This document shows, one piece after another, positions 1-54,937 of a DNA stretch of 55,514 nt. Within the stretch, counting starts at the first letter, position 1, and each line of letters starts with the position of its first letter. Under the pieces are notes generated by a model, which was not told where the DNA came from, ran no database searches, and saw only the letters and a list, made by a program, of their open reading frames with translations. The stretch lies in contig CAWBPM010000001.1 in the NCBI GenBank assembly GCA_963790825.1, positions 1 through 55,514 of the forward strand. The letters are read 5' to 3'. This DNA comes from Candidatus Levyibacteriota bacterium. Lineage in GTDB: Bacteria > Patescibacteriota > Microgenomatia > Levybacterales > UBA12049. The translations under genes and the position numbers were made by a program.

Positions 1-2088
1 CGACCAGCTTGGTGCAGCAGTGACACCTCCCGATATCAGGCAGGAACCGATCGCTACATCCGAGAGTTCTCCCCAGGTATTTGTTCCCGATCCGTAGAGA
101 AGATCTCCGGTGGTAACGGTTGTCTGTCCTGTACCGCCGTAGAGTGTACCTATAGCACTTCCCTGCCAAGTACCAGTACCAATTGTCCCGACCGTTGTCA
201 GGGAGGAGGAGGTAACACCGGTTCCCAGGGTTGTTGAGGAGAGAACGCTGTTGCCGGCGATCTGGTAAGCACCGCTGACACTGTTAAGGTTACCCGAGTG
301 GTCAAGGGTAAAGACCGTAGTACCGGATGCACTGGCAGTCAGGATATTCTGGTTGCCGGTTTCATTAAGGACGGCAAGGGCTTGACCACTCACAGCATTT
401 GTAATATTTAATCTTGCTAGTGATATATTTGCTTGATTAATAGGGATGTTGGTTATGGTAAATTCGTTATCAAAATTTAAAGTATCTAGCGAACTAAACG
501 TATTTGACTCATTTTTTACTGTTATGCCGCCGCTTCCTCCAGATCCGCCATTATCATTTGCGCAATCCCATGAGTTGGTGGAACCGTTCCATTTTAAAAG
601 TTGTTGGTTAGAGCAGCCTTGAATAAGAGACAAGCCTCCAGCGCTAAACTCCATACCCGATGGAGAAGTAAGGGTAGAGCTTGTTCCTGAACTTGCCAGG
701 CTTACTGTAACTGTCGGGCTCCATCCCTCCCCTGTTAATCCGGTAATTGAAATGCCATTGCCAGAAGTTAGACCATAAACATAATCTCCTGTTGTGTCTG
801 GACCCAATGCTACCGAATCAGGACCAATTATTACATTACCAGTTCCATCAACACTAATAGCACCGGTAAGAGTAGTAAAGGTTGGGACCCCTGACGTACT
901 ACCAATAAGTACTTGACCGGGTGTCGGCGGCAAAGTCGCCTGGATGCTTCCCGTCCCATTACCATAGAGAACTCCGTTACTTGTCAGTGATGAAACGCCT
1001 GTCCCACCGTTTGAAACATTAATAATGCCACTCTTAACTGCACCAGCATCAACAGATCCAGTAGAATCTATCGTAATATTATTTGCTATATCAGAATCAC
1101 TCAAACAACTATCACATCCTCCCCTACTATAAACCGTTGCGAGAGTAGAGTTATCGCTAATTGTAAGTCCTGATATGCTAATATCCGATCCGGCAGATAA
1201 AGATAATGAGCCGGTACTTCCTTGCAAAGAGGTTACACCGGTTACACTGTTAACGGTACCTGTAGCGGTCGCACTGATCGTAGGAGTCTGACCGCCACTG
1301 ATACTAATTCCTGTTCCAGCTTTTAGTCCATAGATTAAATTTGCTGCAAAAACACTTCCTGTACCCGCATCTACTGTATGATTATCGGTAGACAATCCGG
1401 AGTTCAATAAAGCATTACCGTTAACTGTTAATGTTTTTTTAACAGCTACATCATCAAGAAAATCAACGTTTTTTTTAAAAATACTTGGCACCTGAACACT
1501 AAAGACTGGATCCTGGCTGATATTTTGCGCAGCCAACACAGCTTGATTTATATTACGTTCTATTTTTCCCCCTGAGAAATGATTTCCGGGTAGTATTTTT
1601 ACACCACCAATAACCGCAATAAGAGCCAAAAAACTAATAAAGCCCGATAGTAGATATATTCTATTTTTATTCGAGGGAGGAATAGACTGGACAGATTGTT
1701 GTTGCGTTAACTCTAACTCTGGTTCTTGTATTACCACCCAATCATGATCAGTTGTGGTAAAGAAATTTGTTGACTCGGAAGAAATAGACGGAGAGAAAAC
1801 AGAAGTTGTTGATCTGGGTTTATATTCTCCTTGATTAGGTATGGACACAAACGCAGCCTGTGATTGAGTTGTTCCTGATTCTCCAGTTTCTTTGGTCTGC
1901 TCGGGAATGGCTACTTGTTTTTTTTGCTTATTTTTTATTTGCTGAAGATCATTAGAACTATATCGCCTCTGATTTCCTATTGTTCGCTCCGGTACCAGAG
2001 AACCTGCTGCATCCCAGCGGCGAAGTGTTTTCGTCGAAACTCCTAAAAAAGTCGCGGCTTCTTGAATTGTCAGTTGTTTATCACTCAT
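1..2088 (-). CDS. Giant membrane-anchored fibre protein, N-terminal 696 codons only (ORF runs off the left edge): MerR/excisionase-type HTH, Ser/Thr/Gln-rich linker, one TM helix, Gly/Thr/Ser-rich tail-fibre-like ectodomain; paralog of 51458..54937
   Basis: Absent from the ORF track because it has no in-window stop. Hand translation of the reverse strand from the ATG (complement of 2086-2088) gives MSDKQLTIQEAATFLGVSTKTLRRWDAAGSLVPERTIGNQRRY. The absence of any listed minus-strand ORF ending here indicates the frame stays open to base 1. A TM helix IYLLSGFISFLALIAVIGGV is encoded at about 1600-1659. Later segments (SVQVPSIFKKNVDFL, AGTGISISGGQTPTIS) align with the 51458 product (VEIPSIFGGNVEFL, AGTGISVTAGQTPTIS). 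Confidence 0.8.
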   Translation of the reverse strand, partial: MSDKQLTIQEAATFLGVSTKTLRRWDAAGSLVPERTIGNQRRYSSNDLQQIKNKQKKQVAIPEQTKETGESGTTQSQAAFVSIPNQGEYKPRSTTSVFSPSISSESTNFFTTTDHDWVVIQEPELELTQQQSVQSIPPSNKNRIYLLSGFISFLALIAVIGGVKILPGNHFSGGKIERNINQAVLAAQNISQDPVFSVQVPSIFKKNVDFLDDVAVKKTLTVNGNALLNSGLSTDNHTVDAGTGSVFAANLIYGLKAGTGISISGGQTPTISATATGTVNSVTGVTSLQGSTGSLSLSAGSDISISGLTISDNSTLATVYSRGGCDSCLSDSDIANNITIDSTGSVDAGAVKSGIINVSNGGTGVSSLTSNGVLYGNGTGSIQATLPPTPGQVLIGSTSGVPTFTTLTGAISVDGTGNVIIGPDSVALGPDTTGDYVYGLTSGNGISITGLTGEGWSPTVTVSLASSGTSSTLTSPSGMEFSAGGLSLIQGCSNQQLLKWNGSTNSWDCANDNGGSGGSGGITVKNESNTFSSLDTLNFDNEFTITNIPINQANISLARLNITNAVSGQALAVLNETGNQNILTASASGTTVFTLDHSGNLNSVSGAYQIAGNSVLSSTTLGTGVTSSSLTTVGTIGTGTWQGSAIGTLYGGTGQTTVTTGDLLYGSGTNTWGELSDVAIGSCLISGGVTAAPSWS
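194..369. repeat. Inverted copy of the 176-nt core of the fibre C-terminal cassette (matches 54029..54204 and 54560..54735 in reverse complement)
   Basis: Base-by-base comparison of the reverse complement of 194..369 with both plus-strand copies. It has one private difference (gaccActcggg versus gaccGctcggg). At the two sites where the plus-strand copies differ from each other, it agrees with one copy at each site. In addition, bases 1..20 are the exact reverse complement of 54383..54402. Confidence 0.9.
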
Positions 2089-2533: not shown

Positions 2534-3406
<873 letters not shown>

Positions 3407-29964: not shown

Positions 29965-29989
29965 AGTAAGTAGCAAGATAATTATTCTG

Positions 29990-30061
29990 TACCATCGAGA
30001 GGAATCGAACCTCCATCTCACCCTTAGGACGGGTTTGCTCTATCCATTGAGCTACGACGGC
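29990..30061 (-). tRNA. tRNA-Arg (anticodon CCU), no encoded CCA
   Basis: Hand-folded cloverleaf: acceptor GCCGTCG/CGATGGT, D-arm GCTC-AATGGATA-GAGC, anticodon loop GUCCUAA, T-arm GGAGG-TTCGATT-CCTCT. Confidence 0.85.
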
Positions 30062-30250: not shown

Positions 30251-30322
30251 CGGGGTGTAGCGAATCGGTATCGCGCTGCTTTCGGGTAGCAGAGACAGGA
30301 GGTTCAATTCCTCTCACCCCGA
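30251..30322 (+). tRNA. tRNA-Pro (anticodon CGG), no encoded CCA
   Basis: Hand-folded cloverleaf: perfect acceptor CGGGGTG/CACCCCG, D-arm GCGA/TCGC, anticodon stem CTGCT/AGCAG with loop TTCGGGT, T-arm GGAGG-TTCAATT-CCTCT. Confidence 0.9.
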
Positions 30323-39393: not shown

Positions 39394-39413
39394 ATCATAA
39401 ACGTGTAAATTTA

Positions 39414-40067
39414 CTAATTGAGAGAGACTTTATCTTTAATCTCAGAAAATACTTTTGTGTTGACAACTTTTTTCGTTTGCAAATCTTCTATATTAATATA
39501 TGGACGGTTTTCAATTATTTTATCGGCAGTTACTTTCCCGACTCCGGGCAAATTATCCAGCTCCGCCTCGCTTGCCGAATTTATTGGAATCAAAGAAGTA
39601 CCTCCCGCCAGTTCATCTTGTCCCGTACTGACTCCCCCGCTTGAATTATCACCAAGAAAAGGAAGATAAATTTTTGCTCCATCGACAAGCTTTTGTGCAA
39701 GGTTAGTATTTTGAGCAATTTTTTTGTGGTCTGCATTTGCTGTAAATCCTCCGGCTTTAACAACTGCGTCTTGTAACCTGCTATCCGCGTTCAATGTATA
39801 CACGCCCGGATTTTGCACTGCCCCTTCTATGTCAATCGTAATAGTACCTACAATTTTCGTACTCGAAGAGACAGGTTGCGTCGAGTCACTATCTACTGCT
39901 TGGCGCACTTGGTTATCAGATGGGAATGTTTCCGAAGAAGATGAGTTGCTGCTTGTAAATAAATTGAATAAACCGTAGCCTAAAAATAAGAAGCCTATTA
40001 CTCCAAGGGCTATTAATACTTGATATTCTTTAATAAGCGAACCATATTTCTCCCATAACTCTTCCAT
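39414..40067 (-). CDS. comEA: ComEA-like DNA receptor (TM anchor, SLBB-like domain, helix-hairpin-helix)
   Basis: C-terminal INSASEAELDNLPGVGKVTADKIIENRPY is a tandem HhH motif. The upstream segment GAVQNPGVYTL...GG is SLBB-like. Confidence 0.85.
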   Translation of the reverse strand: MEELWEKYGSLIKEYQVLIALGVIGFLFLGYGLFNLFTSSNSSSSETFPSDNQVRQAVDSDSTQPVSSSTKIVGTITIDIEGAVQNPGVYTLNADSRLQDAVVKAGGFTANADHKKIAQNTNLAQKLVDGAKIYLPFLGDNSSGGVSTGQDELAGGTSLIPINSASEAELDNLPGVGKVTADKIIENRPYINIEDLQTKKVVNTKVFSEIKDKVSLN

Positions 40068-43100: not shown

Positions 43101-43228
43101 TTAGCAAGCGTTAAATCCGGTTGATAGATCCTTTCTTTTAGCCATTTAGCTTGCCATTTCAGCTCAATCTCAAATGGTTGATATTCTGTTTTCTGCGTTT
43201 GCGGCTGTCTTTGATTGACTTTCTTCAT
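40136..43228 (-). CDS. leuS: Leucyl-tRNA synthetase with a ~170-180-aa extra domain inserted after the editing domain
   Basis: PYPSAEGLHVGNV (HIGH), KMSKSKGN, RDWLISRQRYWGPPIP and AVPGHDERDFEFAKKFNLPI. It is 1030 aa versus roughly 800-880 for typical bacterial enzymes. Confidence 0.95.
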   Translation of the reverse strand: MKKVNQRQPQTQKTEYQPFEIELKWQAKWLKERIYQPDLTLAKKPFYNLMMFPYPSAEGLHVGNVFAQTGPDVYGRFMRMRGNDVFEPIGLDGFGIHSENYALKIGSHPMEQAKKSEENFYRQMHAIGNSFDWSRTVETWKPGYYRWTQWIFTELFKAGLAYRKKAPVNFCPSCKTVLSDEQVLTKSKANEEKLNEVTVGVCERCGTEVEKRDLEQWFFRTTNYADKLLHNLDHINWTEKVKTAQRAWIGKKDGAEIEFKIQNSKFKIKVFTTRPDTLFGAAFLVLSPEHPAVGEILQTISKGKEIDREKLEKYILLSKQKSSEERREEKEKTGVFTGLYAENPVNHELIPVWISDYVLMDFGTGAIMAVPGHDERDFEFAKKFNLPIKPVILPQREYVDENAKSYYEKRTNLHKEVLIDILKTAKKTGKKIAIWGGWAVAIQVGKQFRENEDLDLFIFEEDTDWWKERLKEKGFTISNMFPDDKNAKYYFQATKQDIYIDFITLRLKENGKFEWLSQAEPYEDKYTFKTVFELKEFETLPIWTMSRDMLCKQKRDVALKKGLNLRWNDKADFLMMGYEPYIGEGVIVNSEEWNGLFIPETLGKVIESLEGKGIGQRKTTYHLRDWLISRQRYWGPPIPMIYCENCAKQNKGWLSQQGLKTKDWNSAGWYPEENLPVTLPYIEDYKPLGTGRAPLDHYSSFYETKCPECHEMARRETDVSDTFLDSAWYFFRYTSTDIDSEVFDRERVKKWLPVNICIGGAEHAVLHLLYARFLTMVFHGLGLITFEEPFTRFYAHGLIIKEGAKMSKSKGNIVTPDLYIKKFGADALRTYLMFLGPFSEEGNFKDSGIEAMSRFLKRVWKLFETRNISYEISSSQKGILMQNETIKGVTEDIEALRFNTAIAKLMSWYNFLAKEDSINHEEAKTFLQLIAPFSPHIAEELWERLGEKFSIHTSVWPSFDEKALKKSTVTMAIQINGKLRGTLMTEVNELSNQKKIEELASIQEGVSRYLRKKTVKKIVYIPGKIINFVI
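42427..42454. repeat. Perfect 4 x TTTTGAA heptanucleotide tandem repeat inside the leuS coding sequence
   Basis: Read directly: ttttgaa ttttgaa ttttgaa ttttgaa. It encodes ...EFKIQNSKFKIK... on the minus strand. Confidence 0.95.
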
Positions 43229-43389: not shown

Positions 43390-44097
43390 ATGTTGCCTTT
43401 CCCAATGATCATTTTCTCTATATCTGTACTATTTCTAAATCCTATTAAAGTTTACGCATATACCATGAGTAACGACCAACTCATTCTCCAGATGGGAAAT
43501 ATAAATTCTTCGACACGTCCTCAAAATGCGATGCCTACAGAAAGCGAGGTTTCAGGACAAAATCAGGTTTTGGGAAATAATTACACTATTTCTTTCGGTC
43601 TCTCTTCAAATACCAAGCAGAGTTTAACCTTTAATTTCTCAAATCCAGTTATTGATTTTGGACCGCTGTCAGGTATCAATCCCATTACTAGAACTGCAAC
43701 TTTTTCAATCACCTCTCTTTTTCCTTCAGAGGTTATGGCTCAAGAAGATCATGAGCTTGTGAACCAAAACGGAGATAAAATTCCCGACACAACCTGCGAT
43801 AATGGTACATGCAGCGAAGATTCCGGATCTACCTGGACAAGCGCACTAACATATGGATTCGGATTCAGATGTGATAACCTGATGGGTAATCTTTGCGCCA
43901 GTCTTTTCCAAACCGCGAATACTTTCTCCCAATTTGCTAATCAAGAAAAAGCTGAGCAGGAAGAAATATTGGCAAAAACTAATGGAAGCAGAATTATGCA
44001 GAAAGGCCAGATTACATATGAGCTAAACATCTCCGGCACTCAACCTAAGGGAATATACGAGAATACCATAAGCTATATCGCTATGCCTGAGTATTAA
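43390..44097 (+). CDS. Secreted protein, tentatively WxL-like cell-surface protein
   Basis: Signal peptide. The C-terminal GIYENTISYIAMPEY resembles the terminal G.Y..TLTW.L...P motif of WxL domains, with Tyr in place of Trp. Family call is tentative. Confidence 0.6.
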   Translation: MLPFPMIIFSISVLFLNPIKVYAYTMSNDQLILQMGNINSSTRPQNAMPTESEVSGQNQVLGNNYTISFGLSSNTKQSLTFNFSNPVIDFGPLSGINPITRTATFSITSLFPSEVMAQEDHELVNQNGDKIPDTTCDNGTCSEDSGSTWTSALTYGFGFRCDNLMGNLCASLFQTANTFSQFANQEKAEQEEILAKTNGSRIMQKGQITYELNISGTQPKGIYENTISYIAMPEY

Positions 44098-44101
44098 TAA
44101 T

Positions 44102-45091
44102 ATGCTTCAACTTTTTTTACCCTTCTTCTTTGGTCTTTTTCTTGCTGGCAGTAGTTATCTATTTCTGCCAGATCATTACGTTTATGCTGACAACACAATA
44201 TTTAATTTATCTCCTACGCTGATTAGTATTAAAACTAAGTCTCCTGCGGATATTAATTTTCCATTGCATATAGAGAATCTCAGTAATGGAGACGTTGTAC
44301 TTGAAGTTATACTGAGACCATTTACTCCGGGCAAAACAGAAGGAGTTCCCCAAGTATATATCAATTTCAATAATGATTTACTTCTGCGAAAAATAGAAAT
44401 AAAAGATTCTAGTCAAATGGTCATAGATAAAGAGCTGAAGCTCGGTCCGAAAAGCAAAAAGACGCTTATAGTTCATATTCCTGTCTCTGGGTCTGATCCG
44501 GAAAGCGATCATTATTTCTCGATATTTTTTATTACTGAACCTCCTAAGCCTCCTGAGGTAATTTCTCAGGACATACAAGCCTCAAGCCTGATCCGTACAG
44601 GCGTAGCAGCTACAGTTTTATTGTCGATAAATGACCATGAGTCTGAATCTGTAATGGTTTCCGATTTTACAACCAATTCTTTCATTCAGCATGGACCGGT
44701 ACCGTTTCGGGTTTTAGTCACTAACAAAGGCAGACATTTTGTTAGATTAAATGGACAGGTTGGTATTAAAAATATATTTGGTCAGGAAATTGGTAGTATC
44801 TCTCTACTTCCGGCAAATATTTTGGCAAATAGTTCACGTACTCTCAGTAGTGAAAGTAGCCACGATTCAAACCTGGATAATCTCCAGAACCAAGCTGTCA
44901 TATGGGGTGAAATCTTTCTTCTTGGACCATACACCGCGACACTTAGCCTTGTAAATCCAGATGGTACTATCGTTCTCGAAAAAACTACTCATTTCTTCGC
45001 TTTTCCCTATGGATTTGGATTGGGAATAGTCTTAATAATACTTCTGATTGGATTTCTTATATCCCGAGTGAAGAAAAAACTATCTTCTTAG
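44102..45091 (+). CDS. Surface protein with signal peptide and C-terminal TM anchor, tentatively DUF916/DUF3324-like partner of WxL proteins
   Basis: Signal peptide, two beta-rich halves, and a C-terminal FGLGIVLIILLIGFLISRVKKKLSS anchor with a basic tail. The start is 4 nt after the preceding stop. Confidence 0.6.
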   Translation: MLQLFLPFFFGLFLAGSSYLFLPDHYVYADNTIFNLSPTLISIKTKSPADINFPLHIENLSNGDVVLEVILRPFTPGKTEGVPQVYINFNNDLLLRKIEIKDSSQMVIDKELKLGPKSKKTLIVHIPVSGSDPESDHYFSIFFITEPPKPPEVISQDIQASSLIRTGVAATVLLSINDHESESVMVSDFTTNSFIQHGPVPFRVLVTNKGRHFVRLNGQVGIKNIFGQEIGSISLLPANILANSSRTLSSESSHDSNLDNLQNQAVIWGEIFLLGPYTATLSLVNPDGTIVLEKTTHFFAFPYGFGLGIVLIILLIGFLISRVKKKLSS

Positions 45092-46372
45092 CTTCATAAT
45101 TATGGATGGCACTAACCTATGTTAATTGCGACGAAGCTTTTGTACTAAGATATGTCTAGACCTACTTGACATAATATAATTAGATCCGGCATTTCAGGAA
45201 ATGTTTCCCGAGAGTATCTCAGCATCAAGAAGGAAAACTGATTAGAAAGATATTTAGTATGAATACTCTTTGTTTTTTTGTTTCTTAAAGAAAATGGCTA
45301 GGTGTAAAAAAGTTCTATATTCTCGATGCTCAATAGGTTAATCGATTTCAGAACGTATTAACAGCGCAATTAAATTACGTATATAGTATATAGAGTGTTT
45401 CGAGGCTAAATCAAGCTTTAGGATAATTCAAGATAATGGGTATAGATATATAGAAAGGTTACTTGTTGTAAAATATTTCTTGAATTTAAATTGAGCTGGT
45501 TTTACAATCTAATAGTAACGATTGCAAGAGGTAGCAGACGACATGCTTGTTTGTTAAAAATATATCTTTTGCTCAATAAATATTAATTCAGAAAAATTTG
45601 ATTTACAATAAATCTTATATTAAAGAATAGGTCGATAAAAAACCGAGAGAAGTATAGAAATTTATCTCTTTTACAATTTTTTTTCTAGCCAACATTATCT
45701 TTATATCGATAAAATCTCTTATATGAAAAAGTGAGCAATGAATTTAAATGAAGGATAATTTTAATTCAATGTATCTTCATCGATAAATGTACATTGTGTC
45801 ACTAGAAAGTATTAATTAGTAAAGGTGCTCCTAGTTATTAATTTTCTTTTATGCAAGCAAGTTTTTGTATTATATTCGTGATTTCTTTTAAATCAAGGCT
45901 AATTGATGCTTTTATATATCTTTAGATATAATCTAATTAATTATCGGGTGTATTCAATAAAGTAGTATTTTACTAGAACTAACTGTATTTTAATTTTTTC
46001 AGATTATTATTTTCACACTTTTTCTCTTTTTTTTCGTATCTTTAGACTATCAATTAATATCTTATGCCATCATCACTTTACTTCTATAGGATATTGACAT
46101 AATCAATTAAACTCGTTTAGGCTGTAATAAGGTATGAAAAATTTAAGTCTTTCTTTTTTTGATAATCGGTATAATCCGTATAATCTCGAAGCTATCTGTC
46201 TAGAAGCTATATTGTGAAATTAATTAGAGATAAATATTTGCCTTGTGAAAATGCGGTTTTCATTTGCTTAAAAAGCAAATACTTATGCAATCAATATTTA
46301 AACAGAGAAAATAGGATGAGATTGACTAGTATTAATTACAACATAAGTATTCAAAGAGAATCAAGTTAATCT

Positions 46373-49300
46373 ATGAATGCTATTTTAAATAACTTCAAAA
46401 ACTATTTACTATCAGGATCAGAAGGATCAGCCAAAGCAACAATAAAGAATTACCTAGCTGATATTCGTAAGTTCATATTCTGGTACGAAAAGCAGTTAGG
46501 GAAGTCGTTTGCCATATCTGATGTCACTCAGCAAATAGTAAATGAATACGAAAAGAGCCTAAAAATAGATGCAGAGAGTGCCAAAATAGCAGAAAGCAGT
46601 GTAGAGCGCTATACATCTTCTCTTCGTAAATTTCTTCAGTACGCTCAGAAGGAGGGGCTGATTTCCTGGACATTAAGTTATTCCACAGCCTTAGCAGGAG
46701 AATCAAAAGATATCTGGCATCTTAAGTCATTTCAGAATTTTCTTTACCGGGAAAAAACATCACCTCTTACTATAAAAAACTATATCAATGACGTTAAACA
46801 ATTTCTATCTTGGGTCACCGCAGTCTCCTGGGTGGAAACCAGTTGGAAAATAAAAGAGAAAAATATTTTTGCCAAAATTGATAACATGCTTATTAAGGAG
46901 TACAAATCGCGCCTCTTTTACGAAGCGCGGCTTTCCCCGCTTTCAATCAATCGGAAGCTATCTTCTGTCAGGCGTTTTTGTCTTTGGGCACAGCAAAATG
47001 GTTTACTCGAGAAAAACATCAGTATTTGTAGTTCTAATGTCAACCCTAAAATGATTACTTCTGAAAATCTGAAAACAATTGCTTTATCTGAGTACCCTCA
47101 CGCAGCCTCGTCTTCGCAGATGACAGATTTATCTTCGAAAGTACGGTCAAAAAAAGCCTATTCTTCTTTTCCTCCATTTAGATTCTGGCAAAAGACATCT
47201 CGGGGAATCAATTTCCTTGTCGATTATACACTGGTATTGGGAATTGTTAGGGTTATTGAGGCTACGGGACATGTTATCTGGATTATTTCAGGAAAAAATA
47301 TTTTCCAAGACAACGCAAGTGTATTTTATCAGGGAAAACTTGGACGATTATATTTGAAGAACAAAGCGAAAGGCAAGCAGGATTATCGATCATTTCTACC
47401 AATTGCTAATGTTAAAAAGGAAATTTACGCTCCTCTTGGCATCTCAATCAAATATCTCCCTTTGTATAAAAGATTCTTTTATCATCTTCGCCATTCCCGA
47501 CCTGAATGGTATAAAAGATATCATTCCTATACATTATCTCACTATCTTCATTTGGGAATTTTTATTATTTGCGTGTCTGTAGTAGGCATAAAAGTTGCAA
47601 ATGTCTTAGCACAAGAGCCACTTCAAGTGCTACGTACTCCGCTTTTACCGATTTCTCAAGCTCCACCCAGAATTTTATCTTTTAAAGAAAAATTGACAGA
47701 TATCAGTGGCAGACCAATAACCGCAACAACGAAACTGCGGTTTGCTCTTTATAATGATCCTGCAGCTTCGGGATCGGCATTAATCTGGCAAGAAGTACGA
47801 GACGTACAACCAAATATTGACGGTTTATTTACTGTTGATTTGGGAAAGGATACAACACTTCCTGTAAGTATATTTACGCAAAACCCCAGCCTCTATCTGG
47901 GAACCACGATAGAGAATCAATCGGAGCTTGCTCCACGTCAACCAGTAGCAACACAAACGTATGTCGAGGATAGTCAAACTGTGCAGGGACTCTCCCCGAT
48001 CACCCAGTTTGGAGCAGGAGAAAAAAATGTGCTTTTGACTCTCGATTCAACAGGTAATTTAACAATTGGAGATAATGCATCTCCTACTTTTGAGGCTACG
48101 GGTGGACAGTTTCAATTGTCGGGTCAAGGACTGCTTTTAACGACTGGGACCGGATCAAACACCGATATCACTCTTGCTCCTGATGGACTGGGAGAAATTG
48201 ATGTGCAAAAACCACTTTATAACAGCAATAATTTTACTCTCCCCGGAGCAACCCCAGGCTCCCTGCAGGTCAATGACTCACTATCAGTACTAGCCTCAAC
48301 CAGCGCGTATCCTGTGCTTAATATTGTTCAGACGCTGGCAGGACCATTGATTGCTGCTTCATCGAGCGGATCAACAAAATTTAGTGTTGATTTTCTCGGC
48401 GCAGGCTTTTTTGCAGACAATCTGACAGTCAATGGTGGCAATATCACAACCAATCAAACTACAGCAAGCTTATTTAGCAGCAATGCGATTAATCTAAATA
48501 TTGGGCATGATGCAAGTGCGTTGTCTTTGGGTGCTGAGACTGGTGTTGCAACGATTAATAATGCTGAGACTGATGTAGCAGGAAATTTTACTATTCAAGG
48601 AACAAGTGGCCAAACAATAACCGGGGCTGGAGCAGGAATCTTTTTCTCCGGTAATGGCACGCACGTAATCTCTGCGGGGTCAGGCACCCTTACACTCGGA
48701 CAAGCTCAGATAAATGGCAATCTTACGCTAGCTGATAATACTGCTATTTTGCCTTCCACAAATAATGGAAATGATAATTTAGGCTCTTCTGATAATCCAT
48801 TCAGAACGCTTTATGTAAATAATATTGTTTCTCCTGCATTGTCTCAAGCTGCAAATTATCTCCAGTCACAAAATGGCTCCCTTTTTCCGATAAACCCAAC
48901 AAATGATTTTCTACTCGGCGGAAACGCAACCAGCTCAGCTTTATGGCAGGTATTTGGTTCAGGACTAAACGCCGGCACAGCTTCAAGTTCGGGAAATTTG
49001 ACCTTTATCCATCCAACTACAACTATTTCTGAACTTAATGGCGGTAGTTTAAACTTCCAGGTTTCACCCGGTGGAGATAGCTTAGCTAGTTCTGCTCTCT
49101 TCATTGCGCAATCCGGTAATATTGGTATTAATACTATTCATCCGGATTTCAAATTAGACATTCAGGACTTCCAAATAGCCACAGCCGCTGCCCAGATATA
49201 TAACACAAGCGAAGGAGTAGACGCTGATGGATTACTAGTAAAACTGGGATATACAGGAAACGGAACTCAACCTACTTCGGCTAATGGCTATATTGGAAAT

Positions 49301-51313
49301 CGGTTCATTAGCTTTGTCAACGGTGTTGGGACTACGGAAGGTGCAATTCAATCTGATGGAGCTGGAGGCATTGAATATAAAACAACTGGAGCTGATTTTG
49401 CCGAATACTTTAGCAAATCAGACCCAACGGAACCAATATCTTCAGGAGATATTATCTGCCAAACAGATAGCGGAGTACACAGATGCGATAGTCAATCAGC
49501 AATAATTGGCGTTGTATCCGAGCATCCTGGCTTCACCGGGGGCGAAGATGGACCGAATAAAATTCTCGTTGCTTTAAATGGACAGGTACTTGTAAACGTA
49601 CTTACGACTAACGGGATTATTAAGTCCGGTGACCCAATCACAACTTCAGATATTCCAGGTATCGGTGTAAAAGCTAGCAAAGCCGGTCAAATTATTGGTA
49701 GAGCTTTAGAAAGTTACAGCGCAGATCCCTATACTGCTGGTGAGATTACTGTACTTATTTCACCGTCGTGGTTTGATCCAAATGTCTATTTAACCAATAG
49801 TGGGAACCTTAATATTTCTTCGAGCTCAACTGGAAACACCTATAGCGTGACTGAGGCTGATGGTAACTTTGCTACTCAGGTCGGTAACTTTAGTAAAGCA
49901 ACAATTGCTTCTTTGCAAACAGGCGTGATTGGTGCGCAGGAATTATTGGTTGACAGCTCAGCAACGATTCTAGGAACCTTGAAAGTAGGAATAATTCAAG
50001 CCTCAGAGATAAGTACAAATAGCATTTTTATCGGGGGGCAAAGCCTTAAAGATTATGTGTTAGGTATCATAAAAACACAGCCGATCGTCTCGCCTCTTGC
50101 CGATATTGATATGGTCCATACAAATACCATATCGCCTCTGTCAGATACAAGTAACATCTCTGTATCTCTAAATGACTCTAAGTTTTCTATTCATAATTCT
50201 CAATCTGCATCTTCAGAGGCTGTTGCAACGATTGATAACAATGGAAATGCTACCTTTAGTGGTACTCTTCGGGCAAATAAGATTATTGCATCAGATATTG
50301 AAGGGATTGATAATTTGCCGTCTGCGTCACCATCCGCAATATATGTCACGAACATTACCAACATATCAAATAATTACACTAATGCATCAAATTCTGCGAC
50401 TCCTACCCCCACAATCTCACCAACTACACCAGATCTGGTACAAGCTTCACAGAACGCTTTTTCTACGCCAAGCGGTATACTTACGAGCTTCACCGATACG
50501 GGTGTTGCCAATTTGGCATCAGTCTCTGCGTTTCTTTCTTATGTGCCGAATCTTGAGGCTGATGTTGCCACATTTACCCAAGGGATTATGTCTTTCGGAC
50601 CAACTAGCCTGTCCGATGTTTCTATCGCAGGACAATTATCACTTGGCGGGAATACAATTTATTCCGATAACAGCATTAATGTCATAGGAGCTGACTTGAA
50701 TTTGCAACCCTTACGCCAAGGTGGTGTTTCGATTATGGGAGGATTAGTGGAAATTGACACCGCAGGAAATCTAAATGTTAGCGGCAATGCGGTCTTCGCT
50801 AAAAATGTCCAAGTCTCAGGCACACTTAGTGCTAGCTTAATAAGTCCTCTTCCCGGTAAGGATCTTATAGTTCAGTTGGATCCGGAAAATACAACTCAAA
50901 CTTCTCCTTCTTTTGCTATTCATAACGCATCGGGCAGTGGCGTCTTTGCAATTAACGAACTAGGCAGTTTGATCGCTTCAGGCAGTGGTACGTTTGCAGA
51001 GCTCGCTGCTCAAGGATTCAGTATTGTAAGAGGAGCTCAAGCTGATACTTCAGTTATAGAAACGGTTGCAACTTCATCGGCTGGGGTAGGAACTATACTT
51101 TCAGGTCAAACTGAAAGAACAATTATCACTCCTTTTGTCAAAGCAACCTCGCTTATTTATCTTACTCCTACCTCTAATACTTTTGGTTTGCAACCCTATG
51201 TGGCAAGACAAATACCGGAAGACAAACAAAATCAGACCAAAGGCTCATTTACTGTACAGATTCCTAGGGTTCTTCCTGAGGACATAAGCTTTAATTGGTG
51301 GATCGTTAATTAA
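46373..51313 (+). CDS. Giant (1646 aa) membrane protein: two tandem integrase-type SAM-like (core-binding) domains, TM helix, tail-fibre-like ectodomain
   Basis: Domain 1: FKNYLLSGSEGSAKATIKNYLADIRKFIFWY...SVERYTSSLRKFLQYAQKEGLI. Domain 2: FQNFLYREKTSPLTIKNYINDVKQFLSWV...SPLSINRKLSSVRRFCLWAQQNGLL. No recombinase catalytic domain follows. TM helix LHLGIFIICVSVVGIKVANVLA at about 47550-47615. Fibre motifs include IGINTIHPDFKLDIQD and GADFAEYF...IIGVVSEHPGF...GDPITTSDIPGIGVKA. Confidence 0.9.
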   Translation: MNAILNNFKNYLLSGSEGSAKATIKNYLADIRKFIFWYEKQLGKSFAISDVTQQIVNEYEKSLKIDAESAKIAESSVERYTSSLRKFLQYAQKEGLISWTLSYSTALAGESKDIWHLKSFQNFLYREKTSPLTIKNYINDVKQFLSWVTAVSWVETSWKIKEKNIFAKIDNMLIKEYKSRLFYEARLSPLSINRKLSSVRRFCLWAQQNGLLEKNISICSSNVNPKMITSENLKTIALSEYPHAASSSQMTDLSSKVRSKKAYSSFPPFRFWQKTSRGINFLVDYTLVLGIVRVIEATGHVIWIISGKNIFQDNASVFYQGKLGRLYLKNKAKGKQDYRSFLPIANVKKEIYAPLGISIKYLPLYKRFFYHLRHSRPEWYKRYHSYTLSHYLHLGIFIICVSVVGIKVANVLAQEPLQVLRTPLLPISQAPPRILSFKEKLTDISGRPITATTKLRFALYNDPAASGSALIWQEVRDVQPNIDGLFTVDLGKDTTLPVSIFTQNPSLYLGTTIENQSELAPRQPVATQTYVEDSQTVQGLSPITQFGAGEKNVLLTLDSTGNLTIGDNASPTFEATGGQFQLSGQGLLLTTGTGSNTDITLAPDGLGEIDVQKPLYNSNNFTLPGATPGSLQVNDSLSVLASTSAYPVLNIVQTLAGPLIAASSSGSTKFSVDFLGAGFFADNLTVNGGNITTNQTTASLFSSNAINLNIGHDASALSLGAETGVATINNAETDVAGNFTIQGTSGQTITGAGAGIFFSGNGTHVISAGSGTLTLGQAQINGNLTLADNTAILPSTNNGNDNLGSSDNPFRTLYVNNIVSPALSQAANYLQSQNGSLFPINPTNDFLLGGNATSSALWQVFGSGLNAGTASSSGNLTFIHPTTTISELNGGSLNFQVSPGGDSLASSALFIAQSGNIGINTIHPDFKLDIQDFQIATAAAQIYNTSEGVDADGLLVKLGYTGNGTQPTSANGYIGNRFISFVNGVGTTEGAIQSDGAGGIEYKTTGADFAEYFSKSDPTEPISSGDIICQTDSGVHRCDSQSAIIGVVSEHPGFTGGEDGPNKILVALNGQVLVNVLTTNGIIKSGDPITTSDIPGIGVKASKAGQIIGRALESYSADPYTAGEITVLISPSWFDPNVYLTNSGNLNISSSSTGNTYSVTEADGNFATQVGNFSKATIASLQTGVIGAQELLVDSSATILGTLKVGIIQASEISTNSIFIGGQSLKDYVLGIIKTQPIVSPLADIDMVHTNTISPLSDTSNISVSLNDSKFSIHNSQSASSEAVATIDNNGNATFSGTLRANKIIASDIEGIDNLPSASPSAIYVTNITNISNNYTNASNSATPTPTISPTTPDLVQASQNAFSTPSGILTSFTDTGVANLASVSAFLSYVPNLEADVATFTQGIMSFGPTSLSDVSIAGQLSLGGNTIYSDNSINVIGADLNLQPLRQGGVSIMGGLVEIDTAGNLNVSGNAVFAKNVQVSGTLSASLISPLPGKDLIVQLDPENTTQTSPSFAIHNASGSGVFAINELGSLIASGSGTFAELAAQGFSIVRGAQADTSVIETVATSSAGVGTILSGQTERTIITPFVKATSLIYLTPTSNTFGLQPYVARQIPEDKQNQTKGSFTVQIPRVLPEDISFNWWIVN

Positions 51314-51457: not shown

Positions 51458-54400
51458 ATGCTGCCCTATCTAAATAATCAAGAAACGTACTCAATTCAGG
51501 ATGCCGCTAATTTTCTCGGGATTTCGCCGCAGACTCTTCGTAGGCTCGAAGAACGAGGTATTTTGATTCCGGAGCGGACAGAAGGAAATCATCGTAGGTA
51601 CACACAGGAAGCTTTAGCTACTTACAAAAAAAATAAAAAAAGAGTTGGGACATCTACTTTGATAACTCCACAAGTACGTAATTTTGGAAGTGAGGCAACC
51701 GCTACAATTAGCAACACATCTTCACAACCTGGTATACAAATCATTTCCCCTACTCAACCCATACAGAAACAACCATCTTTAAATACTGTAAGTCAAATAT
51801 CTAATCAGCCAGTACCATCGGTAACCGATCAGCTGAGAAATATTATAAAGTTTGGTAAACCGCAAGCAGATCTTGTTCAGGAAATTGAAAGTCCCTTCCC
51901 CCTTGAAACGAATGGTTACGAAGTAATAGAGAACCCTGAGCAGAGTCAGCCAAAATCCCATGGTTTCCCTAAAAAACCGTCTATTATTTTCAGTGGAGTA
52001 TTAGCTGTTATCTTACTGATCTTCTTCAGCTTGTTATTCTTTAATCGAAATTCCTCGCTAAAAACCTCAACTACAACAAGCCAAACAAATAATAGCAAGT
52101 ACCAAAATATGTATTCAGGGAAAAAACCACTTACTTCAGATCTTGTTTTTAAAGTAGAAATTCCAAGTATATTTGGTGGTAATGTAGAATTCTTGCAAAA
52201 CCTTACCGTTGATAAAAATCTCACTGTAAAAGGTAAAGCAATTTTTAATAGCGGAATTTCTACTAATAACCAAAATATCGATGCGGGAAATGGGACGATT
52301 ACTGCGAGTAATGTGTTGTATGGGATTAAAGCAGGAACTGGAATATCAGTTACTGCAGGCCAAACTCCAACCATCTCAAATTCCGGGGTTACATCTCTAC
52401 AAAACCAGACAGGAAGCTTGCAATTAACTGCGGGATCTGGAATTAGTATTTCAGGCTTAACTATTAGCGCTACTGGTGCTAATTCTTCAAGTTTATCAAG
52501 TTCATATTGGCAACAATCAGGAAACTCTCTTTTCCCTACTACTTTATCAAATGATATTTTAATTGGCGGGAATACTTTGTCTTCTGCCTTATTTTCCGTA
52601 TCTGGAACGACCGGTAATGTAGGAGTATCAGGCACAGTAAATTTTAGTGGTTTAAACGCTTCATCGCCTGTTTTTACCGATGCGTCAAAAAACTTAACAA
52701 ATACAGGAATACTGGACATCGGACACGGCGGTACCGGACAAACTAGTTTTTCATCAAATGCTGTTTTGTTTGGTAATGGTACAGGACCACTTAATTCCAC
52801 GTCTCCACCAACCGCCGGCCAAGTATTGATGGGCAATTTGTCCGGAGTCCCAACATTTACCACCCTCACCGGTGGTATTAGCGTTGATGGAGCAGGTAAT
52901 GTTTCAATAGGATCACACGTTGTCACATTAGGTCCGAATACTACTGGAAACTATCAATCTGGAACAACTGCCGGGAATGGGATATCAGTTAGTGGAACTC
53001 CTGATGCGGGTTGGAGTCCTACGATAGCTATTAATCTTACTTCCTCCGGAGTCAGTAGTAGCACCAGTGCAAATTCAGGATTAGAATCTACCGCTTCTGG
53101 ACTTTCCCTTTTACGTGGATGCGGTAACGGACAAATCTTAAAGTGGGATGCAGACTTAGATCTTTGGGAATGTAATAACGATGCGGGTGCTGGATCAAAT
53201 GCAATTATCAATGTAACCGGCAACAGCTACAGTTCAATTGATACTAGTACTCTTAATTTTTCGAATGATTTCTCGCTCAACGAATCTCCTCTCGGTCAAA
53301 CCAATATAGCGATTGACTACGCTACTTCATATATTACAAGAAGTAACCAGAACGAAACAATTAGTGGTGTTTGGAATTTTAGTAATGGAATAGGAATTGG
53401 CACCACTACTCCTGGAGCTCAACTAAATATTAGTAGCGCAAGTACCGGCAAAGCTCTTGCTATTTTTAATGAAATAGGAGACCAAAATATTCTGACTGCT
53501 TCAAGTTCTGGCAACACTGTTTTTACCATCGATAATACGGGAGCTATCATAACCGGCAGTTATCAAGGAACAACTATTGCAGCTCAATATGGCGGTACCG
53601 GACAGTCCAGCTATACTGCCGGAGATCTCCTTTACGCTACCGGAGCGACTAGTTTAGGTAAACTCTCTGCTGGATCTGGTAATAACGGTAGGGTTCTAAC
53701 TGTTGTCGCCGGCCTACCGGTCTGGGCTTCAGTTTCCGGAGGAGTAGGCGGACTCTGTACTGATTGTGTTATTAATGATCCAAGTTCTAATGCCTTCAAT
53801 ACAATTACTCCAACTGCGAGCAACGTGACCGGCCTCTCAGTCGCTCAAGCATCAGGAGGCAATGTTGATATTTTCAATGTCACTAATAATGGAGGAGGTA
53901 CAACATATCTACAAGTAGCAAGTAATGGCAATATTCTTCTGCCTAATTCCTTCCTTGGTATCGGTACCACCTCACCCATCAGTCTTCTAGATACCGAAGG
54001 AAAAGTAACCGGTAAAGCCTTAGTCTCGCTTAATGAAACCGGCAACCAGAATATCCTGACTGCCAGTGCATCCGGTACTACGGTCTTTACCCTTGACCGC
54101 TCGGGTAACCTTAACAGTGTCAGCGGTGCTTACCAGATCGCCGGTAACAGCGTTCTCTCCTCAACAACCCTGGGAACCGGTGTTACCTCCTCCTCCCTGA
54201 CAACAGTCGGAACACTCACCTCCGGTACCTGGAACGCAACACTTATCACCAGTCAGTACGGCGGTACAGGATTCAACAATAGTGCAGCTGCCCAATACGC
54301 TCTCCCGTACTACTCGGCAACCGGAGTCTTAGGCGGAACTTTGGCAGTCGGAACAACCGGACAATGTCTGGTTGGCAATACCACTGCTGCACCAAGCTGG

Positions 54401-54937
54401 TCGTCTTGTACCGGACTGGGCACCAATTACTTCCAGAGAAATACCACTACCCTCTCTCCGGCAACAGCCAGCGATTCACTCCTCCTGGCTGACTCGGGAA
54501 CTACGACTAACTTCAGGCTGGAAGTCAACGGGAAACAAACCGGTAAAGCCTTAGTCTCGCTTAATGAAACCGGCAACCAGAATATCCTGACTGCCAGTGC
54601 ATCCGGTACTACGGTCTTTACCCTTGACCGCTCGGGTAACCTTAACAGTGTCAGCGGTGCTTACCAGATCGCCGGCAACAGCGTTCTCTCCTCAACAACC
54701 CTGGGAACCGGTGTTACTTCCTCCTCCCTGACAACAGTCGGAACACTCACCTCCGGTACCTGGAACGCAACACTTATCACCAGTCAGTACGGCGGTACAG
54801 GATTCAACAATAGTGCAGCTGCCCAATACGCTCTCCCGTACTACTCGGCAACCGGAGTCTTAGGCGGAACTTTGGCAGTCGGAACAACCGGACAATGTCT
54901 GGTTGGCAATTCCAATGGACAAGTGCCACAAACATGA
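51458..54937 (+). CDS. Giant (at least 1159 aa) membrane protein: MerR/excisionase-type HTH, low-complexity linker, TM helix, tail-fibre-like ectodomain; the C-terminus appears artificially or recombinationally truncated
   Basis: YSIQDAANFLGISPQTLRRLEERGILIPERTEGNHRRY. TM helix IIFSGVLAVILLIFFSLLFF at about 51980-52050. Fibre motifs IGIGTTTPGAQLNISS and LGIGTTSPISLLDTEG. Repeated modules of the form GKAL..NE.G.QNILTAS.SG.TVFT.D and YGGTG. The last 9 codons (SNGQVPQT plus stop) are antisense to a glycosyltransferase gene. Confidence 0.85.
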   Translation: MLPYLNNQETYSIQDAANFLGISPQTLRRLEERGILIPERTEGNHRRYTQEALATYKKNKKRVGTSTLITPQVRNFGSEATATISNTSSQPGIQIISPTQPIQKQPSLNTVSQISNQPVPSVTDQLRNIIKFGKPQADLVQEIESPFPLETNGYEVIENPEQSQPKSHGFPKKPSIIFSGVLAVILLIFFSLLFFNRNSSLKTSTTTSQTNNSKYQNMYSGKKPLTSDLVFKVEIPSIFGGNVEFLQNLTVDKNLTVKGKAIFNSGISTNNQNIDAGNGTITASNVLYGIKAGTGISVTAGQTPTISNSGVTSLQNQTGSLQLTAGSGISISGLTISATGANSSSLSSSYWQQSGNSLFPTTLSNDILIGGNTLSSALFSVSGTTGNVGVSGTVNFSGLNASSPVFTDASKNLTNTGILDIGHGGTGQTSFSSNAVLFGNGTGPLNSTSPPTAGQVLMGNLSGVPTFTTLTGGISVDGAGNVSIGSHVVTLGPNTTGNYQSGTTAGNGISVSGTPDAGWSPTIAINLTSSGVSSSTSANSGLESTASGLSLLRGCGNGQILKWDADLDLWECNNDAGAGSNAIINVTGNSYSSIDTSTLNFSNDFSLNESPLGQTNIAIDYATSYITRSNQNETISGVWNFSNGIGIGTTTPGAQLNISSASTGKALAIFNEIGDQNILTASSSGNTVFTIDNTGAIITGSYQGTTIAAQYGGTGQSSYTAGDLLYATGATSLGKLSAGSGNNGRVLTVVAGLPVWASVSGGVGGLCTDCVINDPSSNAFNTITPTASNVTGLSVAQASGGNVDIFNVTNNGGGTTYLQVASNGNILLPNSFLGIGTTSPISLLDTEGKVTGKALVSLNETGNQNILTASASGTTVFTLDRSGNLNSVSGAYQIAGNSVLSSTTLGTGVTSSSLTTVGTLTSGTWNATLITSQYGGTGFNNSAAAQYALPYYSATGVLGGTLAVGTTGQCLVGNTTAAPSWSSCTGLGTNYFQRNTTTLSPATASDSLLLADSGTTTNFRLEVNGKQTGKALVSLNETGNQNILTASASGTTVFTLDRSGNLNSVSGAYQIAGNSVLSSTTLGTGVTSSSLTTVGTLTSGTWNATLITSQYGGTGFNNSAAAQYALPYYSATGVLGGTLAVGTTGQCLVGNSNGQVPQT
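54007..54379 (+). repeat. Direct repeat copy 1 of the 373-nt fibre C-terminal cassette
   Basis: Base-by-base identical to 54538..54910 except at 54145 (T versus C) and 54187 (C versus T), both synonymous. The offset of 531 nt keeps the reading frame. Confidence 0.95.
54538..54910 (+). repeat. Direct repeat copy 2 of the 373-nt fibre C-terminal cassette, ending at the breakpoint
   Basis: See copy 1. After 54910 the similarity to the sequence following copy 1 (accactgctgcaccaagctgg...) stops abruptly. Confidence 0.95.

Follow-up and report, generated by a model that had tools for sequence, protein, structure and literature searches.

A predicted membrane-anchored fibre protein with tandem integrase-type core-binding domains, and the invariant repeat element upstream of its gene, in Levybacteria

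Background

What does the N-terminal part of a recombinase do at the head of a giant, phage-like surface fibre? The question is raised by a gene at positions 46373..51313 (+) of a 55,514-nucleotide stretch of DNA (hereafter, the window) from Candidatus Levyibacteriota bacterium, contig CAWBPM010000001.1. A first reading of this DNA, made from the sequence alone, saw in the gene product two integrase-type SAM-like domains that are joined, through a linker and a transmembrane (TM) helix, to a long extracellular region of phage-fibre character, with no catalytic recombinase domain. Together with two fibre genes in the same window that start with MerR-type helix-turn-helix (HTH) domains, this was taken to suggest a family of membrane-tethered DNA binders, which might sense contact with another cell in the manner of ToxR or might link the nucleoid or incoming DNA to an attachment site. 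The organism belongs to the Patescibacteria, which are mostly uncultured, tiny and host-dependent, and have few classical signalling systems. Here we describe the fibre protein part by part, its family, and a sequence element that accompanies its gene, and then weigh what its cytoplasmic tail may be for.

Tandem core-binding domains

The gene encodes 1646 amino acids (aa) in one uninterrupted open reading frame (ORF) from which internal stops are absent, and its product consists of two core-binding (CB) domains in tandem, a linker, a TM helix and a fibre ectodomain, in that order. Pfam recognises Phage_int_SAM_1 (PF02899) in two stretches of the protein, with E=1.6e-13 and 51.2 bits against a cut-off of 22.3, and SAM_4 and SAM_5 (PF13495, PF13102) likewise exceed their cut-offs. 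The first cytoplasmic domain (aa 1-100; 46373..46672, +) holds the best PF02899 stretch (6-95), and its invariant residues are K25, N26, Y27, D30, F34, W37, S76, R79, S82 and F87. The second (aa 112-216; 46706..47020, +) holds the other Pfam stretch and aligns with positions 2-90 of the NCBIfam XerC model over aa 119-216; here T133, K135, N136, Y137, D140, F144, W147, N193, R194, K195, L196 and S198 are invariant. An AlphaFold2 (AF2) model of aa 1-501, made with 14 sequences, folds both domains as four-helix bundles, with predicted local distance difference test (pLDDT) scores of ~85-95 (~90 as a typical value) for the first and ~80-88 for the second. The best PDB matches of these bundles in Foldseek are the N-terminal domains of XerA, an integron integrase, the Brujita integrase and several stand-alone integrase N-domains, and a CB profile searched against PDB sequences matches 3nrw and 5hxy. 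The two SAM-like domains proposed from the sequence are thus supported by Pfam, NCBIfam, AF2 and Foldseek alike.

The XerC, XerD and XerA models of NCBIfam align with just their first ~80-107 positions, at aa 5-98 and aa 119-231, and their scores of 30-57 bits fall five- to six-fold short of cut-offs of 220-335 (~55 against ~330 for XerC and XerD). Furthermore, Pfam finds no match to the Phage_integrase catalytic domain (PF00589) in the 1646-aa protein even at E<=1, in agreement with the earlier claim that no such domain follows. What the protein shares with XerC, XerD, XerA and the phage integrases is therefore the N-terminal CB/SAM-like domain, as seen by Pfam, AF2, Foldseek and the PDB profile: the CB profiles, the four-helix fold and the signature residues in both copies. 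It differs from them in lacking the catalytic domain with its R-K-H-R-H/W-Y active site, in carrying the CB domain as a tandem duplicate, and in continuing past aa 220 into a linker, a TM helix and a fibre.

The top PDB sequence match of the CB profile is chain 14 ('RaiA') of 9i5v, a 401-aa chain in the Porphyromonas gingivalis ribosome whose aa 7-102 match with E=4e-8. We rejected this match as a link to the ribosome or to RNA, since just 34 residues, from the RaiA part, are modelled. The chain may be an Xer-like/RaiA fusion or a merged gene model.

Linker and membrane topology

The second CB domain is followed by a variable spacer (aa 217-262; 47021..47158, +) of low model confidence (pLDDT <50), in which conservation is detectable in none of 36 complete orthologues, and then by a conserved basic juxtamembrane region (aa 263-393; 47159..47551, +) that the alignments recover in all 36. 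The latter is characterised by the motifs YS.FPP.R..QK, FYAPL.IS and RP.WYK.YHSY and by an amphipathic helix at aa 267-306. In the AF2 model of aa 1-501 these parts appear as a disordered spacer (219-261), a long helix (267-306) and a TM helix (386-414), and a confident beta-sandwich (435-490) follows.

The TM helix proper (aa 394-412; 47552..47608, +) is the Kyte-Doolittle (KD) maximum of the protein, with a value of 2.35, and lies where the sequence-only reading had placed a strong TM helix after the linker (about 47550-47615). The corresponding segment in 62 relatives has a mean KD of 1.98 and at most one charged residue. The N-terminal 390 aa of the window protein contain 60 K+R versus 30 D+E, whereas the 1230-aa C-terminal part contains 42 versus 94; in the 62 relatives the net charge is ~+7 in the N-terminal domains, ~+11 in the juxtamembrane region and -2.5 per 100 aa in the ectodomain. 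No signal peptide was found in the fibre protein. Because of the hydrophobicity of the TM segment, the positive-inside charge pattern across the relatives and the lack of a signal peptide, we predict a single-pass type II membrane protein with a signal-anchor, its N-terminus inside the cell and its C-terminus outside. A second hydrophobic stretch, aa 287-305, was considered as a further TM helix, which would place the CB domains outside, and was rejected: its family mean KD is 1.29, it has ~3 charges and both of its flanks are positive, as would fit an amphipathic cytoplasmic helix. We regard the architecture and topology described here as nearly certain.

Fibre ectodomain

The ectodomain of 1230 aa is acidic and can be divided into four parts. 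Next to the membrane is a beta-sandwich (aa ~430-495; 47660..47857, +; pLDDT ~90) with the motif PPRILSFQGRLTD..NPI, and a profile containing it matches 22,763 proteins at E<=1e-3. The fibre shaft that follows (aa 496-1007; 47858..49393, +) is rich in Gly, Ser, Thr and Asn and varies in length among orthologues, the whole proteins ranging from 1346 to >3800 aa. It leads into an auto-chaperone of the phi29 gp12 type (Peptidase_G2; aa 1008-1134; 49394..49774, +), recognised by Pfam, Foldseek and phmmer. The remaining ~510 aa (49775..51310, +), including a C-terminal beta domain (aa ~1401-1646), are conserved and form the extreme C-terminus of 35 of the 36 complete orthologues, with a median identity of 48%.

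Three lines of evidence identify the chaperone, and with it they bear out the phage-fibre character that had been attributed to the extracellular region. Pfam matches Peptidase_G2 (PF11962) at aa 986-1057, with 26.9 bits against a cut-off of 25. An AF2 model of aa 960-1646 is confident solely at aa ~1009-1134 and aa ~1559-1646 (the latter with pLDDT 86-90), and Foldseek matches the former to phi29 gp12, both in its premature form (3suc, E=2.4e-5) and as the released C-terminal fragment (3gqh_A, E=3e-5, TMt 0.57); low confidence elsewhere in the ectodomain is expected, because a fibre was modelled here as a monomer. Finally, phmmer aligns DFAEYF (aa 1008-1013; 49394-49411) with residues 1-6 of the released gp12 fragment 3gqh, which starts with DFAEYFES, so that the autocleavage junction of gp12 is reproduced between A1007 and D1008, and autocleavage at this junction is probable by homology. 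In 25 of the 36 complete orthologues a DxAE motif stands equally far from the C-terminus (505-683 aa), and the fibre protein thus has both the Peptidase_G2 domain and the D-x-A-E motif of a G2 auto-chaperone.

The likeness to phi29 gp12 consists of the fold of aa 1008-1134 and of the DFAEYF start of the predicted released fragment. In the phage, however, the module is the discarded, extreme C-terminus of a virion tailspike, whereas here ~510 conserved residues lie beyond it, the surrounding genes are chromosomal, and we are dealing with a cellular protein that is predicted to be membrane-anchored. Among homologues of the C-terminal region, P0190 (aa 520-571), P0198 and P0199 have Peptidase_S74 in place of G2, which indicates that the auto-chaperone module has been swapped within one fibre family. 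A phage origin of the ectodomain was considered and rejected: tblastn against 50,697 phage records yielded one matching stretch of 60 aa, in the tail fibre of a Synechococcus phage, and the ectodomain matches none of the PHROG fibre families. It is likely that the protein is a surface fibre with autoprocessing, and the homology to gp12 and S74 proteins suggests that it probably trimerises.

Another gene of the window, at 2570-3406 (+), encodes a small membrane protein (probable start MKYLQ...) that begins with a signal peptide and has several TM segments in its C-terminal part. The domain in its centre shares 32% identity with aa 1022-1133 of the fibre protein, within the gp12-like chaperone fold; no Pfam or PHROG match was found for this protein.

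Family and conservation

A word-indexed search with aa 1-501 recovered 16 proteins with 33-40% identity, most of them spanning nearly the whole query (~99%). Those with names all come from metagenome-assembled genomes (MAGs) of Patescibacteria or Levybacteria and are called 'site-specific integrase, partial' or 'XerD'. The profile for an exhaustive hidden Markov model (HMM) search was limited to the linker, the TM helix and the first part of the ectodomain, because true recombinases would otherwise flood the search. It matches 255 representative clusters at E<=1e-30 and 3594 at 1e-10, in addition to the 22,763 at 1e-3 mentioned above, and in the top 150 the match starts at residue ~235-290 of proteins that are 1300-6048 aa long. 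Local HMMs built for the SAM-like domains detect both copies in 137 of 161 sequences; most of the remainder are fragments truncated at the N-terminus, and a few are variants in which one partial copy is present.

Contigs of GTDB genomes, taken as one genome per species, contain 251 loci with a relative. Among the best 80 of these, nearly every one carries the label Levybacteria, Levyibacteriota or Patescibacteria; the title 'uncultured Gammaproteobacteria' (on many third-party annotation (TPA) MAG assemblies) and a few other phylum names are probably mislabels, because the loci in question share the same synteny. The family is a syntenic core gene of one lineage, the Levybacteria, and not a general trait of the Candidate Phyla Radiation (CPR). 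All 80 species-representative loci have the N-terminal module, the TM helix and the ectodomain in one ORF. The same is true of the complete architecture in all 36 orthologues for which both ends are available (1346-3784 aa), which come from independent assemblies, and the fusion seen in the window is therefore not a misassembly.

Conservation in the 36 orthologues, in bits per residue, is highest in the second SAM-like domain (0.95), followed by the TM helix with the first part of the ectodomain (0.80), the C-terminal domain (0.80), the juxtamembrane region (0.71) and the first SAM-like domain (0.68); it is lowest in the shaft (0.37), and the spacer (aa 217-262) has none. Since conservation is high there, the cytoplasmic tail is a selected part of the protein and not the decaying remnant of an integrase.

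In one locus (L001, 8001-14730 of a 434-kb contig) the orthologue is broken into at least five frame segments. As several frameshifts fall in one gene of a single contig of this size, they are probably sequencing errors of the long-read indel kind; alternatively, the gene may be a pseudogene.

We found no description of the CB/TM/fibre architecture in the literature searched, and the public names of its members are wrong, so that the claim of an undescribed architecture holds. Membrane-tethered proteins with DNA-binding domains and cellular phage-like fibres are both known kinds; what is new is their combination, the presence of CB domains as a tandem pair of orphans, and a cis element that is dedicated to the gene.

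Upstream repeat element

The fibre gene is preceded at 46161..46194 (+) by an invariant, gene-specific cis element, GATAATCG GTATAATCC GTATAATC TCGAAGCTA, that consists of three tandem repeats of 9 nucleotides (nt), each with a TATAAT-like hexamer. The sequence-only reading had missed this element, as it had the high conservation of the linker, the gp12-type autocleavage site and the Levybacteria-restricted synteny. An anchored alignment gives the consensus (G)ATAATCn-GTATAATCC-GTATAATC-TCGWRGCTA. The distance from the element to the ATG is 204 nt in the window; 57-90 nt is more usual in the orthologues. About half of the loci also have a sigma-70-like box, TTGACA-N17/18-TATTCTAATAGTATG (TATTCT), ~46 nt upstream of the element.

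When k-mers were counted over the 500 nt that precede each of 78 orthologues, the window copy among them, some 12-mers proved to be common to 40, compared with no more than 4 in shuffled sequences. The element is present in 76 of 79 orthologous 5' regions with at least 12 positions at ~2 bits, and the 76 distinct element sequences belong to proteins that are only ~40% identical. When both strands of 1.21 Mb of flanking sequence were scanned allowing up to two mismatches, all 66 matches lay at the 5' end of a fibre gene; the window has the one full site given above. In a metagenome-wide scan, a family member follows in all 20 cases in which the hit extends into TCGWRSCT and enough downstream sequence is available. 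The idea that the 17-mer core of the repeats is globally unique was rejected in the metagenome scan, where many unrelated hits were microsatellite-like 9-mers; specificity for the family is confined to the form extended by TCGWRSCT.

Rfam at its gathering cut-off reports two tRNAs in the window and nothing else, and the cis element is not in Rfam. RNAalifold on 39 leaders predicts zero pairs, and 76 leaders, each folded singly, do not exceed their shuffles in stability (mean z -0.16). A structured RNA in the 5' region was rejected on these grounds, and, as there is no conserved RNA fold, the element acts as primary sequence, either DNA or linear RNA. It could be a site at which a protein binds DNA, a linear motif in the RNA, or else a tandem -10, promoter or pause signal of an unusual kind.

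Two shorter sequences were also seen in these regions. The 8-mer TTTTCACA/TGTGAAAA is the most widespread in the 5' regions (58 of 78), often in two or three copies and in either orientation; in the window it occurs at 46010 (+), 46244 (-) and 2247 (-), and it is found three times upstream of the MerR-HTH fibre gene at 1-2088 (-). The exact 9-mer TCGARGCTA(A) is limited, within the window, to the leader of the fibre gene and to the same MerR-HTH gene. We dropped it as a shared motif, the relaxed pattern being common in the loci and present also inside coding sequence.

Sister fibres and gene neighbourhood

Both of the MerR-HTH fibre genes that had been noticed in the window are there. The gene at 51458..54937 (+) encodes 1159 aa with a MerR-HTH (aa 11-55), a TM helix (~aa 175-196) and a fibre; the other, at 1..2088 (-), has its N-terminal 696 aa in the window and its C-terminus off the window start. 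In both, a MerR/excisionase-type HTH comes first and a low-complexity linker second, followed by a single TM helix and then a fibre-like ectodomain, and relatives in other Patescibacteria are named 'MerR family transcriptional regulator, partial'. With CB domains in one group of fibres and a MerR HTH in the other, two unrelated DNA-binding folds of mobile-element type occupy the same cytoplasmic position. The suggestion of a recurrent class of membrane-tethered proteins with domains of DNA-binding type is supported by how large and how conserved the CB family is and by these MerR-HTH/TM/fibre relatives elsewhere.

Upstream of the fibre gene, at 43390..45091 (+), lies a pair of genes for a secreted 235-aa protein (43390-44097) and a 329-aa protein (44102-45091), the latter with a signal peptide and a C-terminal TM anchor followed by basic residues. 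Of 81 loci, 60 have a homologue of the 235-aa gene and 66 one of the 329-aa gene, always upstream of the fibre gene and transcribed in its direction, and in many loci the pair is duplicated as genes of ~480 aa and ~330 aa. Neither the pair nor its larger paralogues match a Pfam family; the layout of the pair is, we presume, reminiscent of the WxL/DUF916-type clusters of Firmicutes. The gene order that recurs is comEC(-), comEA(-), leuS(-), 235-aa(+), 329-aa(+), fibre gene(+), with leuS present in 50 of the 81 loci. Directly upstream of the fibre gene many loci have a divergent gene for a secreted Ig-like protein of ~295 aa (Big_6/CarboxypepD_reg). The same space in the window (45092-46372) is an AT-rich gap of 1.28 kb with no ORF of 60 aa or more, in which repeats, promoters and terminators do not exceed chance. 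The neighbourhood is a cell-surface gene cluster, and the wider context is chromosomal, with F-type ATP synthase, MreB, sortase, leucyl-tRNA synthetase (LeuRS), ComEA and ComEC genes and no phage genes.

Some further features of the window were recorded. The hexamer CTGCCC occurs 20 times on both strands, four times within ~15 nt of a start codon, where ~0.2 would be expected by chance; the four genes are a giant Kelch/FN3 gene (12910-20073, -), a GAF histidine kinase gene (36402-38120, +) and the two MerR-HTH fibre genes (51458-54937, +; 1-2088, -). In many orthologues of the fibre gene (A/T)CTGCC(C) is likewise found near the ATG, either before it or in codons 4-6, and is hence independent of the reading frame. 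The LeuRS gene (40136-43228, -) encodes an extra insertion of ~155 aa (aa 418-573) just past the editing domain, and this insertion matches nucleotidyltransferase families (Aminoglyc_resit, PF10706, E=2e-9; NTP_transf_5). The gene at 12910-20073 (-) encodes a Kelch-repeat/FN3/Ig surface protein of 2387 aa directly upstream of genes for an ABC ATPase (12108-12908) and a MacB/FtsX-type permease (9928-12111), and the three may be a dedicated export or anchoring unit. The tRNA genes are at 29990-30061 (-) and 30251-30322 (+); as the mechanically assigned GTG start of the sortase ORF (29260-30021) sits inside the first of them, the real start of that ORF is further downstream.

Discussion

What, then, is the tail for? 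The explanation that we consider best overall, and hold tentatively at somewhat below an even chance, is a membrane-anchored host-recognition fibre with a nucleic-acid-binding tail. An acidic fibre of phage type would stand outside the cell, folded and trimerised by its internal gp12-like auto-chaperone. Self-cleavage between A1007 and D1008 would divide it into a shaft of ~600 aa, still held by the membrane anchor, and a conserved distal fragment of ~640 aa. The trimer would cluster six weak CB domains at the membrane, and the clustered domains would bind nucleic acid, most likely double-stranded DNA, the chromosome presumably being reachable from the membrane at all times in a cell a few hundred nm wide. 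Binding of nucleic acid by the tail is predicted from the CB homology, from its basic character and from the MerR HTH that the sister fibres use in parallel, and to us belief and doubt on this point are almost balanced, with doubt slightly ahead.

The fibre part of this explanation has a counterpart in the mosaic adhesive trimer (MAT) fibres of Bdellovibrio bacteriovorus, phage-like surface trimers, many of them autoprocessed by S74, that serve in prey recognition (PMC10769870); bacterial surface proteins named 'tail fiber domain-containing' are close to it in the same way. Like these, the Levybacteria protein is a chromosomally encoded, phage-like surface fibre of a bacterium that lives on other bacteria. 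In both cases an autoproteolytic chaperone is present (S74 in MAT fibres and, among the proteins studied here, in some homologues), and the ends are conserved while the middle or tip varies. However, MAT fibres have a signal peptide and an N-terminal surface-binding domain, where the protein described here has a TM anchor and a 390-aa cytoplasmic tail of DNA-binding type. A Foldseek comparison with Bd2133 gave weak matches (E 0.3-0.75); the resemblance appears to be functional, and homology is unproven. By analogy with MAT fibres, and given the lifestyle of Patescibacteria, the fibre most likely recognises or attaches to another cell or surface.

Among possible targets of the tail, the best candidate is the element 5' of the gene itself, with its invariant triple repeat of 9 bp. 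If the CB domains bound it, the protein would be a ToxR-like membrane-bound regulator in one polypeptide, tying assembly or engagement of the fibre to its own transcription and perhaps to that of other genes; we judge it unlikely, but worth naming, that the repeat in the leader is what the tandem CB domains bind. The hydrophobicity and charge bias of the window protein and of 62 relatives give the topology of ToxR, CadC and TcpP, in which one TM helix joins a cytoplasmic, DNA-binding-type domain at the N-terminus to an extracytoplasmic part at the C-terminus, and a route that leads from an outside event to DNA and is free of phosphorelay is plausible in both cases. The differences are that the regulators have an OmpR-type winged helix and a small sensor domain, compared with CB domains and a phage-like fibre of >1200 aa here. 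A ToxR-like role is thus suggested by sequence features, with the repeat as candidate target only.

Several points weigh against a DNA-binding tail on a trimeric, self-cleaving fibre. Isolated recombinase CB domains are weak DNA binders, and DNA binding by this tail is predicted from homology only. The synteny says little about function, because all loci come from one lineage. As for the repeat element, its perfect -10 hexamers may simply mean that a surface-protein gene with high expression has a promoter that is strong or multiple, or a site of sigma pausing, and it may be RNA polymerase or some other factor that recognises it; its 9-bp spacing differs from the 10-11 bp usual for binding on the same face, and the link from three repeats to a trimer is numerology. 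On the fibre side, trimerisation is predicted from gp12 and S74 homology, the shaft is poor in the monomer AF2 model (pLDDT <50), and the gp12-like domain is internal, whereas it is C-terminal in phages, for which reason cleavage of the gp12 type is not certain. The topology, finally, is predicted from hydrophobicity and charge bias.

The strongest alternative, which we still think rather unlikely, is that the CB domains have lost nucleic-acid binding and now direct the fibre to a pole or attachment organelle, either as an anchor to proteins or the cytoskeleton or as a platform for assembly. Some membrane proteins use a DNA-binding fold to bind proteins instead, as does RodZ, which resembles the fibre protein in having a cytoplasmic HTH-type domain, one TM helix and an extracytoplasmic domain, and whose tail binds MreB and not DNA; RodZ differs in its small extracytoplasmic part and has no homology to the fibre protein. 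The conserved juxtamembrane motifs look like an interaction surface, and the strong conservation of the tail is compatible with any specific partner. Yet both CB copies keep the canonical signature (T.KNY..D...F..W, S.NRKLSSLR) and basic residues, the tail is net positive across the family, and a MerR HTH stands at the same position in the sister fibres. As the latter is a different DNA-binding fold, a shared nucleic-acid ligand is an easier explanation than a shared protein partner.

It is improbable that the tail is a latent transcription factor which, in the manner of MyRF, Notch or RsgI, is freed by intramembrane or juxtamembrane proteolysis upon engagement or assembly of the fibre. A precedent for combining a membrane-bound factor with a phage chaperone domain is MyRF, a eukaryotic membrane-bound transcription factor with a phage tailspike intramolecular chaperone auto-processing (ICA) domain (PMC8326128); an autoproteolytic module is present in the fibre protein, and the disordered spacer (aa 217-262) could serve as a cleavage region. 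The gp12-like cleavage site, however, is predicted to be extracellular and ~600 aa from the membrane, and cleavage there cannot free the tail for that reason; in addition, no site-2 protease or rhomboid is linked to the gene in the window. MyRF and the fibre protein both unite a DNA-binding-type domain, a TM helix and a trimerising, autocleaving chaperone of phage derivation in one polypeptide. In MyRF, by the published definition (PMC8326128), the ICA domain is cytoplasmic, lies between the domain that binds DNA and the TM helix, and frees the former, whereas here the order is DNA-binding-type domain, TM helix, fibre, chaperone. The chaperone of MyRF is moreover of the S74 type, compared with an extracellular, distal one of the G2 (gp12) type here; the DNA-binding domains are of different kinds, and there is no homology beyond the chaperone idea. 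Because domain order and logic differ, the fibre protein is not a member of the MyRF family.

We give similarly little credence to the tail as a tether, of non-specific or many-site binding, that holds the nucleoid or incoming DNA at the fibre site, for instance so that the chromosome faces the host contact or DNA from ComEC is received. The tail is basic, six CB domains per trimer would provide avidity, and comEC and comEA lie a few kb upstream (38170-40067), being present in 17 and 24 of the 81 loci, respectively, numbers that are partly limited by flank length. But comEA and comEC are divergent from the fibre gene with leuS between, synteny within a single lineage carries little weight, and we know of nothing that links CB domains to single-stranded DNA, the form in which DNA enters through ComEC.

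Still less probable is that the N-terminal 390 aa and the TM helix are a long leader for export or anchoring that is removed, for example by signal peptidase at L-A-A 12-20 residues past the TM helix. Most relatives do have a conserved (A/V)LAA motif past the TM helix, but it is further from the hydrophobic core than typical signal-peptidase sites, and two folded domains that are the best conserved in a 1.3-6 kb-codon gene would be unexpected in a disposable leader. The idea of an artefact, in which misassembly or a frameshift joined what is left of an integrase to a fibre gene, might appeal to the metagenome-type contig, to a GC content that climbs from 0.36 to 0.43 along the gene and to the frameshifted orthologue in L001, and it is effectively refuted by the same one-ORF fusion in 36 of 36 complete orthologues from independent projects and in >130 cluster representatives, and by the conserved linker and TM helix that bridge both parts.

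Conclusions

Whatever the tail binds, some consequences follow from the architecture. Hundreds of database entries named 'site-specific integrase' or 'XerD' are not recombinases, and counts of mobile elements in CPR genomes are inflated accordingly. Recombinase CB domains can be exapted without their catalytic domain. Furthermore, the cis element is sharply defined and gene-specific, and its binder can therefore be sought.

A bolder proposal, to which we assign only a slim chance, is that these genes represent an unrecognised class of fibre-tethered DNA-binding proteins in Levybacteria, with MerR-HTH variants in other Patescibacteria, whose CB domains would bind the triple repeat of their own promoter, so that contact with another cell, or assembly on it, would be read directly as a change in transcription or in chromosome anchoring without a kinase, a second messenger or a released factor. 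If this is true, the class would be a bacterial counterpart of the logic of MyRF and Notch, built from parts of mobile elements: an integrase CB domain, an excisionase/MerR HTH, a tail fibre and a gp12 chaperone. Across a whole candidate phylum the gene belongs to the syntenic core, and its recombinant fragments are testable without culturing. For partner recognition in Patescibacteria, and for the step from contact to regulation, the fibre gene is an obvious candidate for the missing link.

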